DNA of 31,441 nt from positions 1 through 31,441 of IMG/VR virus record IMGVR_UViG_3300029318_000058; one strand, 5' to 3'. Both the position numbers and the translations under genes were made by a program. The notes beneath the pieces were generated by a model. It was not told where the DNA came from. It ran no database searches and saw nothing but the letters and a program-made list of their open reading frames with translations. This document shows positions 15,741-28,533 of this stretch, one piece after another. The stretch comes from a virus (taxonomy: Duplodnaviria > Caudoviricetes). The first letter of the stretch is position 1; every line of letters begins with the position of its first letter.

Positions 15741-17129
15741 ATGGCACTACAAATCAGTGATACAACACCTAGAATACAATATACAGCTACGTCTGGACAG
15801 ACTACATTTGCTGTCAATTTTGAATTTTTTAATGTAGCAGACTTAAAAGTTTACAACGGTACGACACTCCTTACTTACAACAACTCACCTTCATCTGCAT
15901 CACAATACAGCGTTACTGGTGCAGGTGTTACAGGTGGGGGATCTATAACATTAGGAGGATCAGGTGCTACCCTGAATGATAAGATTACTATAGTTAGAGA
16001 TCTAGCTATATCTAGAACATCTGACTTTCCTGTATCTGGTAACTTCCCAATACAAACTCTTAATACAGAACTAGATAAGATTGTTGCTATGATGCAACAA
16101 TTAGAAGAACAGTTTGCTAGAACACTACAATATCCTGTTACTACAACTACAGGATTTAATGTAGACCTACCAGATTTAGTAGCTAATAGAGTATTATCTG
16201 TAAACTCAGATGCAACTGCATTATTAGCTAATCAAGAACTAGGTACAAACAAAGGTAACTGGGCAGCTTCTACTAGTTATCAAGTTAGAGATTTAGTTAA
16301 AGATACATCTACAGGTAATATATTTTTTGTTAATACTGCACATACATCAACTGGTAGCCAACCATTAACTACCAATGCTAATAGTGCTAAATATGATTTA
16401 ATAGTAGATGCGGCATCAGCTACTACGTCAGCTACAAATGCTGCTAGTTCAGCTACAGCTGCCGCATCAAGTGCAACTACTGCATCTGGTCATGCGACTA
16501 CAGCAACTACCAAAGCTGGAGAAGCGGCAACTTCTGCCACTAATGCAGCCAGTTCTGCGACAGCGGCTGCCAGTTCAGCTACTAGTGCTAGTGGTTCTGC
16601 CACAACTGCAACTACTAAGGCTAGTGAGGCAAGTACCAGTGCAACTAACGCAGCATCATCTGCAACATCTGCTGCAAGTTCTGCTACCACAGCAACGACT
16701 AAAGCAAGTGAAGCATCAACATCTGCAAGTAATGCTGCTACCTCTGCAACGACAGCTACGACTCAAGCTACAACTGCTACAACCAAAGCTACAGAGGCTG
16801 CTACATCAGCTACGACAGCAACAACACAAGCAAGTACAGCTACAACTAAAGCATCAGAAGCCGCTACATCAGCGACTAATGCTGCTGCTAGTGCTGCCGC
16901 TGCCGCTGCATCTGCTGATAACTTTGATGATACCTATTTAGGAGCTAAGTCATCTGATCCAACACAAGATAATGATGGAGATGCCTTGAACGCAGGAGAT
17001 TTATACTTTAATACTTCTAGTAATGAACTTAAATATTATAATGGATCTGCTTGGAACGCTATTGTGGCTGTTGATACTAGTGGATTTGCAACGAAAGGAT
17101 TTGCGACAGCTATGTCTATCGCATTGTAA
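15741..17129 (+). CDS. Tail fibre protein with T7 gp17-like N-terminal adaptor and Ala/Ser/Thr coiled shaft
   Basis: YTATSGQTTF, ITIVRD and LNTELD adaptor motifs; AST repeats; GDLYFNT...YNGSAW C-terminal motif. Confidence 0.85.
   Translation: MALQISDTTPRIQYTATSGQTTFAVNFEFFNVADLKVYNGTTLLTYNNSPSSASQYSVTGAGVTGGGSITLGGSGATLNDKITIVRDLAISRTSDFPVSGNFPIQTLNTELDKIVAMMQQLEEQFARTLQYPVTTTTGFNVDLPDLVANRVLSVNSDATALLANQELGTNKGNWAASTSYQVRDLVKDTSTGNIFFVNTAHTSTGSQPLTTNANSAKYDLIVDAASATTSATNAASSATAAASSATTASGHATTATTKAGEAATSATNAASSATAAASSATSASGSATTATTKASEASTSATNAASSATSAASSATTATTKASEASTSASNAATSATTATTQATTATTKATEAATSATTATTQASTATTKASEAATSATNAAASAAAAAASADNFDDTYLGAKSSDPTQDNDGDALNAGDLYFNTSSNELKYYNGSAWNAIVAVDTSGFATKGFATAMSIAL
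16408..16915 (+). repeat. Degenerate coding repeat (ATTKASEA.TSATNAA, heptad-based)
   Basis: Repeated A/S/T-rich peptide units with synonymous nucleotide divergence. Confidence 0.8.
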
Positions 17130-22867: not shown

Positions 22868-23624
22868 GGGTAGACCTAGGAAGGATGAAAGTACCCCTTC
22901 TACGGCTCTTAAAACAGGAAAAAACGACAGAATTTTGGTCATCTCTGACCTTCATGTGCCTTATCACCACCCTGATAGTTATAGGTTCTTGGAGTCTTTG
23001 GCTGCTAAGTATGATCCTACGAATGTTATTCATATCGGAGACGAAATGGATTGGCACTCAATTAATGTTTCTCACATAATCAATCCAGATCTACCATCAC
23101 CTGCTGATGAACTAGAAATCGGTAGATATCACATGAAGAAACTAGAATCTATGTTTCCTGTAATGACTATACTAGAATCTAATCATGGTTCTATGGTCCT
23201 TAGACGTGCTATGGCAAAGGGTATGTCTAAGTTCTTTCTGAAAGACTACAATGAAATACTAGATGTAGGTCATGGTTGGCAATGGAAAGAATCCCATTGG
23301 GAAGAAACTGCTATGGGTAGAGTTTACTTTGCACATCAAGTATCTAAAAACATTGTGAAGGCAGTACAGATGATGTCTGCTTCGGTAGTTCAAGGACACT
23401 ATCATACTCAGTCAAACATAGAGTATGTAGGTAATGACTTCCATCTAAACTGGGGTATGTCCGTTGGTTGTTTAGTTGATAAGAAGTCTATGGCTATGGC
23501 TTACATGAAAGTAAACATGGCAAAGCCAATCTTATCTTGTGGTGTCATCACTAATGGTGTACCATCCATAGTTCCAATGTTATTGAGGAAGGATGGTTCA
23601 TGGGATGGCAAAGTATACGTCTAA
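22812..23624 (+). CDS. Calcineurin-like metallophosphoesterase with N-terminal AT-hook
   Basis: ISDLHVP, GDEMD, SNHG, FAH and GHYH motifs; KRGRGRPRK; TTG start after GGAGG. Confidence 0.88.
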   Translation: MEDQQKKSQVNLKIIKRGRGRPRKDESTPSTALKTGKNDRILVISDLHVPYHHPDSYRFLESLAAKYDPTNVIHIGDEMDWHSINVSHIINPDLPSPADELEIGRYHMKKLESMFPVMTILESNHGSMVLRRAMAKGMSKFFLKDYNEILDVGHGWQWKESHWEETAMGRVYFAHQVSKNIVKAVQMMSASVVQGHYHTQSNIEYVGNDFHLNWGMSVGCLVDKKSMAMAYMKVNMAKPILSCGVITNGVPSIVPMLLRKDGSWDGKVYV

Positions 23625-23895
23625 AGATAAAAAATATTTTAAGAAAATAATCCAAGAAGGATGCTGTGTTCCAGGTTGTATGTCTAATTCACCAATGAAT
23701 GTTCATCATCTACGTGGTAGCCAGGTTCAACATAATAGATCTAATCAGCTTGTAGTACCATTGTGTTTTGAACACCATTCGGATCTGACATGGGGTAAGT
23801 ATAAACCAGAACATAAGTTTTGGGAACATCATAGTTTTGATGCAGTAGAATATGCTAATGAACTGTACCAGAAATACGTGTCTGAACGACACTAA
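23605..23895 (+). CDS. DUF968 / HNH-like Zn-binding putative nuclease
   Basis: CCVPGC...VHHLR...VVPLCFEHH pattern. Start may be 23593 or 23605. Confidence 0.7.
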   Translation: MAKYTSKDKKYFKKIIQEGCCVPGCMSNSPMNVHHLRGSQVQHNRSNQLVVPLCFEHHSDLTWGKYKPEHKFWEHHSFDAVEYANELYQKYVSERH

Positions 23896-24088
23896 GTTCT
23901 TTCATACGTTCTTTGATAGCATCTGTAGTTTGATTTTTGTTTATCTTTTTGCCTGATAGCGAAGCTGCCATGATGGCATATGCTGCAAAAATAGTATCGG
24001 TACTATAACCGAACTGTTTAAGGTAGACACTGTAATCGTTGAGTGTGTCTACTAACTCGTCTAATTCACCTTTAACAATCATTGTCAT
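23855..24088 (-). CDS. Hypothetical protein
   Basis: 77 aa; last gene of the leftward arm. Confidence 0.6.
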   Translation of the reverse strand: MTMIVKGELDELVDTLNDYSVYLKQFGYSTDTIFAAYAIMAASLSGKKINKNQTTDAIKERMKELSVVQTRISGTVH

Positions 24089-24109: not shown

Positions 24110-24231
24110 GGGTGCTAATACTAGAGGATATATACACGAAAATAATTCCTTTCACTATAGTTTGTACTAGCACCCATATTCCCCAACAACCTAGCTAGGT
24201 GAAGGTTTTACCTTACATAACGAGGGGGAAA
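24110..24231 (-). other. Two structured RNA domains (12-bp hairpin and a branched domain)
   Basis: GGGUGCUAGUAC/GUAUUAGCACCC stem (G-U pair only on the - strand). UUCCCC/GGGGAA encloses AAGGU-AAA-ACCUU and ACCUAGCUAGGU. Confidence 0.5.
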
Positions 24232-24235
24232 CTTT

Positions 24236-24345
24236 ACTGTGTAGGCGTGTAGCCACCTGCATTATAGACCATGAGCACAGAGCCTTACCTCAGGAACTTT
24301 CGTCTATTGCATTAAGCTCACTACCTTATGTCTTTCCTACACAGT
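24236..24345 (-). ncRNA. Putative structured ncRNA, element A
   Basis: Perfect 10-bp closing stem ACUGUGUAGG/CCUACACAGU. Inner GUAGU/GCUAC, UGCA-AUAGAC/GUCUAU-AA-UGCA and an alternative GAC-GAAA-GUU hairpin. Core shared with element B. Confidence 0.65.
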
Positions 24346-24357
24346 TCCATATGGAAA

Positions 24358-24762
24358 CTAAAATGGTATATCACTAGGGATATCATCATCTGGTAAGTCA
24401 TTAGATGACTGCTGTTTAGCATCACCTTTGCTGCTTACCATCTTCATAATACCCATTCTAGGGATAATGATAGAAGTGTTATAACGTTTGTTACCATTAC
24501 TATCTGTGTATTCAGATACATCTATCTCACCTTCAAGATATAACATTGTACCTTTCTTCACATAGTTCTTGATAGTCTGTGTTAGATTAGGATCAAAGGT
24601 AGTAACCTTGTGCCAAGTAGTTTTCTCTTGCCACGTACCATCTTTGGTCTTGATCTTCTTTGAAGTTGCAAGGCTAAAGTTAGCAAACTCATCACCTTTA
24701 CTGGTAGCTTTGATCTCTGGATCTGTACCCAATCTACCTACTAGTATTACTCTGTTAATCAT
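24358..24762 (-). CDS. ssb: Single-stranded DNA-binding protein
   Basis: INRVILVGRLGTDPE, TTWHKV, KKGTMLYLEG and acidic DIPF tail. Confidence 0.97.
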   Translation of the reverse strand: MINRVILVGRLGTDPEIKATSKGDEFANFSLATSKKIKTKDGTWQEKTTWHKVTTFDPNLTQTIKNYVKKGTMLYLEGEIDVSEYTDSNGNKRYNTSIIIPRMGIMKMVSSKGDAKQQSSNDLPDDDIPSDIPF

Positions 24763-24763
24763 A

Positions 24764-25072
24764 TTACCTCCTTAACTCTACTAGGTTATCTTCTGACTTT
24801 ACCTTTGGTCTAGGAAAAGCCTTTTCAATCTTCTTAATGATGTCATTCATTAATAGATTCTCACACATTCTAATCGCTTTCCTCTTAGCAGTTGCGTAAG
24901 AATCCCAATCAGATTTATGTTGATTCTTGATGAGAGTATCATCAATAGTTAGCCTCCATTTAGTAACGGAGTCTTGAAAGCGAGGAGTTACCTTCACTAT
25001 GTTTACTATAATATTTAGGCTATGCCCATATGCTATAGTTGTTTGGTAATGTCCAGCTCTTATACACTTCAT
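24764..25072 (-). CDS. Hypothetical protein
   Basis: 102 aa, GGAGG RBS, ATGA coupling. Confidence 0.65.
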   Translation of the reverse strand: MKCIRAGHYQTTIAYGHSLNIIVNIVKVTPRFQDSVTKWRLTIDDTLIKNQHKSDWDSYATAKRKAIRMCENLLMNDIIKKIEKAFPRPKVKSEDNLVELRR

Positions 25073-25563
25073 GTAACCTCCTTAACTTTTGACTTATCTA
25101 CATTAGATTTAATATCTGCTTTGACTTTTTCAACGTACTTACTGCTATCATGTAAACCTAAGAATACATCTGCACTCATACCTAGATGCGACATAGCTTT
25201 AGTTAGTGCATCTGTCATAGCTTTCTTAGGTGCTTCATCATCTAGCTTACCATTGTTTTTGTACAATGATTGAACTGAAGATACAGGTCCAAAGCCACCA
25301 ACACTTGAATGTGAACCAGCCCACATCTTTAACTCACAGAACACTAAAGTATCTGTATACTTGTACTCAGCGTTCCACTGCCAACCTTCACCAATCGGAC
25401 CGAATACTTCAGTCATCTTTCCGATCTGCCACATTGGATCAATAGTTGTTATCTCACCAAAGCCTTTGTTGATCTTCTTAGTAAAGTCTGGGTTAGTAAC
25501 TTTAAGTTGATCCCAGTATCTTTTGTGTTCTTCTGGCTTAGCCAGTGGTTTATATTTAGTCAT
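25069..25563 (-). CDS. Rad52/Sak-like single-strand annealing protein
   Basis: TEVFGPIGEGW and DEAPKKAMTDALTKAMSHLG motifs; lies between exonuclease and SSB. Confidence 0.75.
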   Translation of the reverse strand: MTKYKPLAKPEEHKRYWDQLKVTNPDFTKKINKGFGEITTIDPMWQIGKMTEVFGPIGEGWQWNAEYKYTDTLVFCELKMWAGSHSSVGGFGPVSSVQSLYKNNGKLDDEAPKKAMTDALTKAMSHLGMSADVFLGLHDSSKYVEKVKADIKSNVDKSKVKEVT

Positions 25564-26167
25564 TAGTTCCTCCTATTGAATCGAACTCTACATAATCAGC
25601 AGGTTCTTCATCATTGATAATATGTTGCCAAAACATTTCCTCTGCCTTGATTAGTTTCTTTTGAAACTTCTTGTCAGCTTGTACATGAAATGATTTCCAT
25701 TTATTATTACCAAAGATAATAGATAACCATGCTTGTGGTAAATTAGATACAATCATATAGTGCTGTATCTGTGCATAGTATTTCTCTAGTATAGTATCAT
25801 CTTTAGTAAATGCGTGTACGTGCTTTGCTTCAAAGACACCTACTGTTTTAAGATCTTGGTTTAATACAAAGCCATCTAGATTAGCCATCATCCACTTACT
25901 TCCATTCTTATCTACTGGATTGTGTACGAGTGTCCAATCACATTCTTTAACTGGCATATCTGTTTGTGCAGTAAACCAATCTCTATTGAAATCTTCGGTA
26001 TATATACCTAGCTGTACTGGTAGCACAAAAGATAGATCTTCATTTTCTTTCAGACCTTTCTTCTCTAGGTATAGATCTTTCCAAGTACCAGCTACTATCT
26101 TAGTAGCATCACTTCCTCCGATCCCTTGACTTCTGTCTATAACTTTCTTTTGCTTGTGAATATTCAT
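25556..26167 (-). CDS. YqaJ / lambda-exonuclease-like recombination nuclease
   Basis: GIGGSDA, MANLDG, FEAK and YYAQIQHYM motifs. Confidence 0.93.
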   Translation of the reverse strand: MNIHKQKKVIDRSQGIGGSDATKIVAGTWKDLYLEKKGLKENEDLSFVLPVQLGIYTEDFNRDWFTAQTDMPVKECDWTLVHNPVDKNGSKWMMANLDGFVLNQDLKTVGVFEAKHVHAFTKDDTILEKYYAQIQHYMIVSNLPQAWLSIIFGNNKWKSFHVQADKKFQKKLIKAEEMFWQHIINDEEPADYVEFDSIGGTND

Positions 26168-26447
26168 TTACCTTCCTCTCGATAATATTATCAAATTCTT
26201 TTTTTCTTGACCATATTTCATTAGCTATCTTTTTGATACTAGGTTGAACATATGGTTTAGTTAGTTCAATACGTAATGCGTTAGCTACATCCCTGCCTTT
26301 TTCTAGATATGCAAAGTAACAAACGGATCTGATCCATGCTTGTTTACGCTGCATGGGATCACGAAGATTATACTTTCTTCGTTGTGGTTTGAGTTTCTTT
26401 TCATTAACTAGTTTTCGGGCCAGAAATTTAGGATCTATCGTATTCAT
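26109..26447 (-). CDS. Basic hypothetical protein
   Basis: 112-aa K/R-rich ORF within the operon. Confidence 0.6.
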   Translation of the reverse strand: MNTIDPKFLARKLVNEKKLKPQRRKYNLRDPMQRKQAWIRSVCYFAYLEKGRDVANALRIELTKPYVQPSIKKIANEIWSRKKEFDNIIERKVNEYSQAKESYRQKSRDRRK

Positions 26448-26628
26448 CTATGGCTTTTTGTAGATACCACAGAGCTTTCTGTAGATCTACGACTCCTCCT
26501 TTGAACTTATGTCTAACAATATATTTTATCACATTTCCTAATGGATATGATAATTTTTTTTCCATTATAAAATCATAAGTTTCAATTTTGCCTTGCTTGT
26601 AATGGCTCGGATTTATCTGATCTGTCAT
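26428..26628 (-). CDS. DUF3310 protein (related to T7 gp1.7 nucleotide kinase)
   Basis: INPSHY..GKIE...GNVIKYIVRH..KGG..DLQKALWYL. Confidence 0.9.
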   Translation of the reverse strand: MTDQINPSHYKQGKIETYDFIMEKKLSYPLGNVIKYIVRHKFKGGVVDLQKALWYLQKAIDEYDRS

Positions 26629-26866
26629 AGGGATTCCACCTCACATCTATTAGTCTATAAGTCTTACCACTATACACTGATTTCTGTGGTGTGCCTATAT
26701 TTAAATCAATATCTTTAAGCCTTGATGGTGTAAGCATCATTACTTCACCTTTGTGAACTGCCTGGATAGTATAGTTCTTATCAATGGCTTGTTGGATTTC
26801 GTAATCTCTTAACGAGATATACATACCTTTCCATAGTTTTTTAACTATTCTTGTTTTTGTTTTCAT
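26582..26866 (-). CDS. Hypothetical protein
   Basis: 94 aa, AGGAG RBS. Confidence 0.65.
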   Translation of the reverse strand: MKTKTRIVKKLWKGMYISLRDYEIQQAIDKNYTIQAVHKGEVMMLTPSRLKDIDLNIGTPQKSVYSGKTYRLIDVRWNPYDRSDKSEPLQARQN

Positions 26867-27017
26867 AATAACTCCTGTTGTAACATTTAATACATAACAG
26901 ATTATTTCCTGTCGTATCTATGTTTATCATCATTGGTAAAGTGTACTTCCTCCCACATAGAAAGCATTGTTGGATGGGAGTACTTTTGGAGGAGGAAGGA
27001 TTAGATTGTACTCCCAT
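26841..27017 (-). CDS. 58-aa zinc-ribbon protein (not in ORF track)
   Basis: MGVQSNPSSSKSTPIQQCFLCGRKYTLPMMINIDTTGNNLLCIKCYNRSYYENKNKNS; CxxC-x20-CxxC. Confidence 0.65.
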   Translation of the reverse strand: MGVQSNPSSSKSTPIQQCFLCGRKYTLPMMINIDTTGNNLLCIKCYNRSYYENKNKNS

Positions 27018-27024
27018 CTAAACT

Positions 27025-27828
27025 CTAGGCAGCTTGGCTAAACCAAGCCATGTTAGACACTTTCCTCTCTCTATCATAGCGAGTATTTACTGAATCGCTA
27101 GGATAATGTGTACTCCAATGCGTGATTGCTTGATATGCACTGAATTTATTAGGTCCAAACTTCTGTGCATAGTTATCATTGTACTCAATAAGAATAAAAT
27201 TCTTGTGGTTTTGATTGACATGACTCTTGTCAGTACGTGTTGGTTGATAGCATAACTTATCTACTTCAGCTTCGAACTGATAGTCATCTACTGGTATTTC
27301 TAACCAGTTAGTCATGTAGTTATGTACAGTATGTAGTCCATCAATAGCTGCATAACCACCAGGTAATGCTAGTTTAATCTCACCACTACCTTTGTGTGCA
27401 GTATTTAAACTGATATCCCATACTGAACTCTTGAGTCCATTAAGACATAGCCATAGATAGAAACCTAAATCAAATCTAAATGAACGCATACCATTGTAGC
27501 TGTTCCATATCACAGCTTCTAGACCAATAGATGTATCTTTGAATGGTATCTGATACTCTGGTAAAGAGAATCTAGTAGCCATCACAGCACCATTGTTAGA
27601 GTGCTTGTGTTGTTCAGTCATACCGTTGGTATCAAAGTGTTCATTGAGAAAGTCAATAGCTTTATCATACGCTGTGTCATGTGAAATGACTCGGTATGTG
27701 TTTTTGTGAACTGCAATCAGTTCGTTGTTATCTTCTTTAACCAACTGCTTGTAGCCATCTAGCCTTGAGCCATGTTGATTGTATACAGGTTCTTCACGAA
27801 CCTGAAATAGTAGTTCTTGTGGTAACAT
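27025..27828 (-). CDS. DUF932/DUF945 family protein
   Basis: YRVISH, WNSYNG, LCLNGL, H(KG) and YQAITHWSTH motifs; AGGAGG RBS. Confidence 0.85.
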   Translation of the reverse strand: MLPQELLFQVREEPVYNQHGSRLDGYKQLVKEDNNELIAVHKNTYRVISHDTAYDKAIDFLNEHFDTNGMTEQHKHSNNGAVMATRFSLPEYQIPFKDTSIGLEAVIWNSYNGMRSFRFDLGFYLWLCLNGLKSSVWDISLNTAHKGSGEIKLALPGGYAAIDGLHTVHNYMTNWLEIPVDDYQFEAEVDKLCYQPTRTDKSHVNQNHKNFILIEYNDNYAQKFGPNKFSAYQAITHWSTHYPSDSVNTRYDRERKVSNMAWFSQAA

Positions 27829-27846
27829 ATTTCCTCCTTTGTTACA

Positions 27847-28120
27847 TTCGCCAAGGGCGAGGGATTAGTGTTATTACCCTCATGCTTTCAGCTACAGATA
27901 TACATTCATCATTTGCCTACTTACAACCACCTTCGAATACCTCAGGCATTTGCCCATACTTCATCTCCAGTGTACCTTACGCCTCTGTATAGACGTTATT
28001 CAGTCAGCCGATACTGATAGCTATTCAGTACCACGAAACTTCGAGAGCCGACACCATGCTATTCATAGGTGCTTTAGCGGTGATCATGGTCCACTAGCAC
28101 TAGCTCTCTCGCTCAGCGAA
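27847..28120 (-). ncRNA. Putative large structured ncRNA, element B (about 275 nt)
   Basis: Fills the whole intergenic gap and is closed by UUCGCUGAG/CUUGGCGAA. At least six internal helices, several with minus-strand G-U pairs, and a 6-bp pseudoknot ACCAUG/CAUGGU. Confidence 0.75.
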
Positions 28121-28122
28121 AC

Positions 28123-28533
28123 TTATAACTCTGCTCTAAATGAACAGAACTTATCTGATTTAACACGATCTAGTATTTTTTTACCTAGTTCATATCGTGC
28201 ATACCACATTAGATAGTAGTGGTATTTACTTTTTTGATGATCTTCTATTGACTGACCTGTTTCTGGTACAGGTACATTCAATAGCTTACACATTTCTTCT
28301 CTAGTATAGCCATCATTCTTTTTGAAGAAATCATCTAGTAAACCTTTTCTCCAATCTAAACGCTGACAACATTCATCTAAACCTGCTTGTATTTTTGGTA
28401 TATGTTCATCATCAAAATAATATTCAAGATAATCTGGTTGAAATCCTATTGATCCAAAGAAATCTGCATCATTACTAGATTGTATACCAAACCAGAACTT
28501 ACCTTCTATATCACCCTCGTAATATCTACCCAT
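28123..28533 (-). CDS. Conserved hypothetical phage protein
   Basis: MGRYYEGDIEGKFWFGIQSS..ADFFG N-terminus; GGAGG RBS. Confidence 0.75.
   Translation of the reverse strand: MGRYYEGDIEGKFWFGIQSSNDADFFGSIGFQPDYLEYYFDDEHIPKIQAGLDECCQRLDWRKGLLDDFFKKNDGYTREEMCKLLNVPVPETGQSIEDHQKSKYHYYLMWYARYELGKKILDRVKSDKFCSFRAEL

Follow-up and report, generated by a model that had tools for sequence, protein, structure and literature searches.

The window, by which is meant the whole stretch of DNA analysed, is 31,441 nucleotides (nt) long and covers positions 1 to 31,441 of the IMG/VR virus record IMGVR_UViG_3300029318_000058 (Duplodnaviria; Caudoviricetes). The record is a 31.4 kb virus that is 94% complete. 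Podophage head and tail genes are encoded on the plus strand and an early operon on the minus strand. Two intergenic RNA elements of this operon, A (24236..24357) and B (27847..28038), are the subject of this report. An earlier note had described them as paralogous RNAs sharing one scaffold. They are two different folded RNAs, not copies of one, and the two-paralogue system is not real. All features below are on the minus strand unless stated otherwise. Between A and B lie genes for a single-strand DNA binding protein (SSB; 24358..24762; PF00436, E 2.6e-30), a predicted Rad52/Sak-like annealing protein (25069..25563), a YqaJ/RecE-like exonuclease (25556..26167; PF09588, E 1.2e-15; phrog_434) and a DUF932 protein (27025..27828; PF06067, E 1.5e-8). 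The annealing protein had no match in the Pfam scan of the window's open reading frames (ORFs); it was assigned through ESM atlas clusters named Rad52/22 (score 0.97), in one of which 10% of members carry PF04098. The gene set agrees with that described earlier. The gene at 28123..28533 belongs to phrog_33624 and has no assigned function. One array of RNA units, which includes A, begins at the 3' end of the SSB gene and a second, which includes B, at the 3' end of the phrog_33624 gene. The capsid protein is 60.6% identical to its counterpart in Pelagibacter phage EXVC031P Hodr, and 14 of 29 window proteins tested matched the Hodr genome, the holin at 78.6%. A SAR11-like host is suggested by these matches.

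In the Rfam scan of the window element B matched the manA family (RF01745) at 33.5 bits, with E 3.2e-5 against all Rfam and 7.5e-9 against the single family. The match covered the whole model (positions 1-192 of 192). Relatives of B scored 29-42 bits (29.1-41.6). The gathering cut-off of 55.2 was not reached, and B is therefore termed manA-type and is not filed as a member of the Rfam family. Element A matched nothing in the same scan. The view that neither RNA belongs to a named family thus held for A and failed for B. Weak matches to isrG, HOTAIR_2, STnc400 and the L20 leader were away from the units and far under the cut-off and were disregarded. That to isrG (16609-16911) fell within a repetitive, Ala/Thr/Ser-rich tail gene, on the strand opposite to it, and was treated as a composition artefact.

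A consensus fold of B was built from 47 distinct copies. It has a 5' hairpin; the core is closed at its ends by a 3-bp stem, and another 3-bp stem carries a hairpin. The central arm bears one hairpin, and a further arm and a 3' hairpin of 5 bp complete the fold. Across the copies 94.9% of cells were paired and 16 of 39 pairs were compensatory. None of 500 shuffles was paired as highly, and the value was also above all slid controls. The 94.9% total had the closing stem off register; in its correct register this stem was 85.5% paired with one compensatory pair. The nine core helices were 94-100% paired. In the centre a single covarying hairpin was predicted, and three segments of the manA model were matched by only 9-10 letters each. 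The central three-hairpin multiloop of manA was not seen in B, which is a trimmed form. Loop letters CAGA were complementary to UCUG in 46 of the 47 copies, judged by eye and invariant within the set, while a more canonical manA copy (L143, 52 bits) had other paired letters at the same place. This suggests a loop-loop contact, drawn here as a predicted pseudoknot. In our reading the layout recalls a tRNA cloverleaf and the last loop starts like a T-loop. Candidacy of B as a tRNA was rejected: tRNA models gave no score and ARAGORN made no call. The accessible text of the manA cryo-electron microscopy (cryo-EM) preprint (10.64898/2026.07.01.735769) does not use the word tRNA. Single-sequence folding was uninformative for both elements (z -1.15 for A, 0.35 for B). 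A scan of GTDB genomes gave one match for B, judged to be chance.

Element A folds into a small 5' hairpin, a 9-bp outer stem, a conserved internal loop (AAAGRCANAAG/ACG), a 5-bp helix P2 and a short P3. The distal part is variable and the window carries the long form. Among 24 sequences 97.6% of cells were paired and 12 of 19 pairs were compensatory, with 0 of 500 shuffles as high. These sequences come from few clades, so the events are fewer than the cells. Near copies kept both ends and had the middle swapped, from 3-6 letters to about 50. A model of the near copies found three distant copies in another phage group, in which the helix GUAGU/GCUAC is replaced by CCAAC/GUUGG. This helix, proposed in the earlier note, was thereby confirmed as compensatory in relatives. 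A held-out test with a pattern consisting mainly of loop letters returned 35 loci with 27 distinct sequences. Twenty of the 27 had P2 paired at 5/5, in five versions, together with P1 at 7-9/9. The remaining seven had P1 at 1-5/9 and look like chance coding matches. No Rfam family matched A in any of its forms (window and 33 loci), and neither the manA model nor the B model matched any A copy. Because no Rfam family matches and the A and B models do not find each other's element, A is a family of its own; its fold is a rod in which two internal loops are conserved. A metagenome scan with a 17-letter word of A gave at least 119 loci; among the matches listed nine were true copies, all of the near type, and the rest were chance. 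The GTDB genome scan for A gave no matches. Two records with distant copies had no match to the window capsid protein, but these records are incomplete. A gene neighbouring one distant copy was closest to HTVC023P/027P-type pelagiphages (38%). A minimal 52-nt form (L192:1373-1424) keeps the 5' hairpin and outer stem and has lost the large internal loop.

The invariant internal-loop letters of A, set between covarying helices, resemble catalytic or ligand pockets. A self-cleaving ribozyme or a metabolite aptamer, e.g., a sponge for a nucleotide signal, was accordingly considered. No Rfam ribozyme or riboswitch matched at E up to 1-2, and the ribozyme function raised earlier found no counterpart among Rfam ribozyme families in the window or the 33 loci. 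As specific candidates the c-di-GMP-I riboswitch (RF01051; 0 of 5 records) and wcaG (RF01761; no match at an A copy in 5 records) were both rejected at E up to 10. With its two internal loops, a simple rod such as A would suit a protein-binding site at least as well. The ribozyme or aptamer reading is thus quite improbable.

The surroundings of both elements were examined in relatives found via SSB and DUF932, with units told apart by short anchors. Both intergenic sites in these relatives are variable strings of folded units that begin after stop codons. About 20 unit types were distinguished. Behind SSB there were 40 distinct arrays in 30 unit orders, slightly undercounted since the C10 anchor misses one variant. 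Among phages with SSBs at least 85% identical there were still 26 distinct arrays of 134-508 nt in 16 orders, and A was present in one. The gap before DUF932 ranged from 12 to 551 nt; it was 12-14 nt in 5 of 16 distinct sequences and contained B in 8 of the 16. In related phages these units also occur at a third site, behind a distant DUF932. One gene may be followed by a stack of up to five or six different units, and empty stubs between two leaders were seen in several relatives. Both sites were resolved in 17 contigs: seven had neither A nor B at them, seven had B before DUF932, two had B behind SSB and one had the bracketing arrangement of the window. The last is the window's twin. Units are independently gained, lost and reordered in related marine phages, and it is very probable that they are separate, shuffled structured RNAs. 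Arrays of 600-900 nt in other phage groups (L351:300-1200, L374:200-830, L188:1676-2278) share A, B, C15, C16 and C18.

The proposal that A and B share one scaffold, and bracket the recombination module as DUF932-binding, processing or guide RNAs, rested on three words in the same order. These words are present in both intergenic elements: TAAGGTA, CCTGAGGTA and AGGTGG at 24328-24322, 24294-24286 and 24258-24253 in A, and at 27979-27973, 27946-27938 and 27932-27927 in B. A adjoins B in several relatives, and box 1 occurs in 12 of 23 distinct A cores. Such sharing was not beyond chance. An ordered chain of exact words of at least 22 letters arose in 5097 of 20,000 dinucleotide shuffles, and under four scorings the p value of the local alignment between A and B was 0.21-0.58. 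In the same alignment test the positive controls (A with distant A, B with distant B, B with a more canonical manA) each had 0 of 1000 shuffles as good. The boxes were also not fixed. Box 2 was kept in 2 and box 3 in 4 of the 23 A cores, and the only core with all three was the window's own. All three were kept in 12 of 47 distinct B sequences. The exact three-box pattern in IMG/VR gave 16 stretches, made up of B-type matches, a match in a coding region and the A form, which was confined to one contig identical to the window at both elements. Box 1 is the 3' strand of a helix in B and is loop plus 5' helix strand in A, where distant copies read GAAGCCA. In B box 2 is the 3' strand of a hairpin with covarying letters and box 3 the 3' strand of a CAC/GUG helix. 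That helix was 100% paired with one compensatory pair, against zero compensatory changes and 13 of 188 cells unpaired for the competing UACA/UGUA helix proposed earlier. Covariance models of A found no B and the B model no A (E up to 10, 10 and 5), which argues against one fold used twice.

The equal length of the 17-nt segments comes from the way in which the reader chose to divide gaps of 27 and 26 nt. They consist of helix and loop parts and had no second site within the window at three mismatches, which does not fit a guide. Bracketing of the recombination module was limited to the one contig in 17 already mentioned, and B precedes DUF932 in just 8 of 47 variants. The paralogous-pair reading is already largely refuted and is given very little probability. 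What stands is that A and B are both genuine structured RNAs, in a locus whose RNA arrangement had not been described.

Several other units flank A and B. Unit C3 (24179..24231) is a two-arm hairpin unit of about 53 nt found in 14 of the 40 distinct SSB arrays. A third TAAGGTA lies within a C3 stem. One arm contains a self-complementary stretch of 12 letters, with compensatory changes in two variants, and is a possible dimerisation site. A long terminal hairpin, T (24110..24175), lies at or near the end of the SSB array; its anchor was found in 30 of the 40 arrays. The inner part of T contains GAAAGGA, which is like a Shine-Dalgarno (SD) word. The next gene, a small one (23855-24088), overlaps the end of a plus-strand gene (23593-23895), and the operons converge there. 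Unit h4+C4 (28042..28121) consists of a small hairpin and a three-way junction with an outer stem that varies among relatives. C4 itself (28107-28042) had no Rfam match. Its outer stem exists in four versions, and in 12 variants inspected by eye the 5' linker probably forms a pseudoknot with the last loop. A fixed hairpin with an anti-SD loop word (26973..27018) follows the DUF932 stop, headed by AGUUU at 27024-27020. Its stem letters vary among relatives, its loop keeps UCCUCC, and the complementary GGGAGGAAG follows in the window. This hairpin could mask the next ribosome-binding site or mimic the 16S tail. For T and the anti-SD hairpin, both of them fixed, a role in cis is quite possible.

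A short leader punctuates the arrays. By sequence reading AGUUU precedes A and overlaps the SSB stop codon (24355..24359), AAGUUU links A to C3 (24229..24234) and precedes B (28036..28041), and a further AAGUUU overlaps the stop of gene 28123-28533 (28119..28124). RGTTT preceded A in 24 of 26 distinct contexts, B in 33 of 47 and C3 in 15 of 15. The density of AAGTTT was 4.86/kb in arrays, 0.51/kb in neighbouring genes and 0.26/kb on the reverse complement, i.e., strand-specific and about 10-fold higher in arrays than in flanking genes. The leader was found at 22 of 120 homology breakpoints, compared to a mean of 7.5 and a maximum of 18 in 2000 draws. Variable inner stems, which likewise interrupt alignments, add noise to this test. 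The leaders showed no promoter-like or terminator-like site. An RNWUU word lies in the single-stranded linker before A, C3, B and h4+C4; the RNase E consensus RN/WUU has been mapped in Salmonella (PMC5222698). Part of the stretch was contained in seven RNA runs, and contigs from five were used. Two RNA-library contigs cover B (X1, 27750-28176; X2, 27519-28013); they may be DNA and give no strand, ends or level. Among the pieces listed none spans A, and this missing cover carries no weight.

The gain and loss of units at the leader, with empty stubs left behind, could also mean that AAGTTT is a site at which DNA recombines. The units would then be mobile cassettes of folded single-stranded DNA, integron-like or selfish, and would matter little as RNA. 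The presence of Sak-like, exonuclease and SSB genes between the arrays would fit this, and PeSL cassettes are described as shuffling through repeated stem-loop elements (PMC2839356). The many G-U pairs, the predicted pseudoknot and the multi-branch cores are RNA traits, and manA RNAs fold and assemble as RNA. No internal site is common to the units, and no integrase was present among the 34 and 23 ORFs scanned, which are part of the window ORFs in a record 94% complete. This DNA-cassette explanation is improbable.

The explanation preferred here, which we hold tentatively, is that swappable arrays behind early-operon stops are released by RNase E as decoy RNAs acting in trans. The units would be transcribed with the early operon, since they lie on the coding strand behind stops and no promoter-like site is found at the leaders. 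Host RNase E would cut AG/UUU in the linkers and free each unit, whose 5' hairpin or closing stem would then lie only a few letters from the new end and stabilise the unit. From the linker words, release at this place is judged somewhat probable. Once free, the units may serve in trans as decoys that engage RNA-binding or defence proteins of the host, on the analogy of pseudo-ToxI and Racr, and B would oligomerise by loop-loop contacts as other manA RNAs do in vitro. A trans role is assumed because the units can be absent, occur in stacks and show no dependence on which gene is next to them; the decoy role, drawn from analogy, is plausible and is put forward with reserve. Short-homology recombination at the linkers would exchange the units; genes for the Sak-like protein, the exonuclease and SSB are located between the two arrays.

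The main rival is a cis role, in which the units are elements of the early mRNA, either riboswitch-like 5' leaders or 3' stability or processing elements, that tune SSB, DUF932 and their neighbours. Every unit is on the coding strand and adjoins genes, the two fixed hairpins may be of this kind, and manA was described in potential 5' untranslated regions (UTRs; PMC2864571). B stands directly before a ribosome-binding site and gene, a potential 5' UTR position, in the window and in 21 of 47 variants (DUF932 in 8 of these); it does not in the other 26. There it is followed by a non-coding unit (20 variants) or by a TTGACW word (6 variants, one of which is another unit by eye). What comes after B is thus one of several different genes, a further RNA unit or a promoter-like word. 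Its fold ends ahead of the SD word, so that no expression platform is visible. In 7 of 17 contigs DUF932 and SSB are retained where A and B are both missing from these sites, and the stacking of five or six different units behind one gene also speaks against tuning of that gene. A cis role for the units is considered unlikely.

Several points weigh against release and decoy action. RGTTT is absent from 14 of 47 B copies, from 2 of 26 A contexts and from several other units. Breakpoints lie away from the leader in 98 of 120 cases. The RNase E consensus is short, AU-rich and derived from Salmonella. Compensatory counts come from few related clades and are not independent events, and B copies were collected by a pattern on the D-like region, where conservation is therefore built in. 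SAR11-like hosts are regarded as poor in defence systems, which weakens an anti-defence role. The assembled contigs of RNA libraries gave no evidence of transcription or processing of the units.

A wider version of the release-and-decoy explanation is more speculative. Marine podophages might carry a shared, exchangeable library of about 20 structured RNA genes in RNase E-punctuated arrays, each unit decoying a different host protein or signal, manA-type cages included, and units moving between unrelated phage groups. It would be an RNA counterpart of anti-defence gene islands. We regard this as doubtful.

The locus thus has a trimmed manA-type RNA, the new covarying family A and a shuffled array carrying both; the arrangement is a variation on known phage RNA clusters. 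The manA-type RNA behaves as mobile cargo: it changes sites, has differing downstream genes or RNAs and is missing from close relatives. Its mobility and varying neighbours argue for a free accessory RNA and make the question of cis or trans action testable. According to the accessible parts of the cited sources, manA builds RNA-only cages in vitro and is assigned no function. Phages that are nearly identical except for a single RNA unit amount to natural knock-outs. With A, a strongly covarying family is added, and about 20 further uncatalogued candidate RNAs come from the arrays. A or other units may be among the candidates of Fremin et al. 2023 (PMC10690425).

Leader-punctuated shuffled RNA arrays were not found described in the literature searched, which left out most subscription papers. 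In the isolated phage genomes searched the arrays had no DNA match and DUF932 had no relative, and none of three A and B models gave a significant match in Hodr. A related arrangement, the wcaG-manA-abiF cluster, is reported from cyanophage S-CREM1 (PMC9964418) and mentioned again in a 2025 review (PMC12197685). As in the arrays here, several structured RNAs of a phage lie close together, within about 800 nt of one another. It is described as cis regulators plus one small RNA (sRNA), and the accessible text mentions neither shuffling nor a leader. wcaG modules resemble the present units in starting with RGUUUC and ending in UGGUG/GUGGC words. In the portion available of supplement 5 of PMC2864571, RGUUUC, the word heading these units, opens each half of the wcaG motif.

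PeSL cassettes of T4-type phages (Arbiol et al. 2010, PMC2839356) are alike in modular shuffling at repeated non-coding elements in early regions. As far as the available text goes, they are promoter-terminator elements that move protein genes, whereas here the RNA is the cargo and the shared word has 5-6 letters; the leaders lack the promoter plus terminator of each PeSL repeat. The sRNAs released by RNase E from 3' UTRs (Chao et al. 2017, PMC5222698) are similar in that the units start at RNWUU at or just behind the stop. The units differ from them, as described in the accessible text, in being tandem, unrelated, folded and variable between strains, with cleavage predicted from sequence. RNA decoys encoded by phages are represented by pseudo-ToxI and Racr (PMC3475682, PMC10651486). 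These are likewise accessory non-coding phage RNAs and serve as the working analogy for the units. In the portions of those papers available they mimic a known host RNA, while A had no GTDB match and the one match of B was chance.

manA itself has been a riboswitch candidate since 2010, with a cis-regulatory role proposed from potential 5' UTRs in the accessible part of Weinberg et al. 2010 (PMC2864571). The available text of the cryo-EM preprint reports in vitro 8-, 10- and 60-mers held by kissing loops. manA and B share the GACUGAAUAA...UAAGGU core, the 5' hairpin, a 3' hairpin ending in AAUCCC and, as predicted by eye for B, a loop-loop pairing at the place where L143 pairs with different letters. 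B differs in scoring below the 55.2 cut-off, in having one central hairpin for three segments and in an added closing stem. It is a mobile array unit in a Hodr-related podophage, not a fixed 5' leader.

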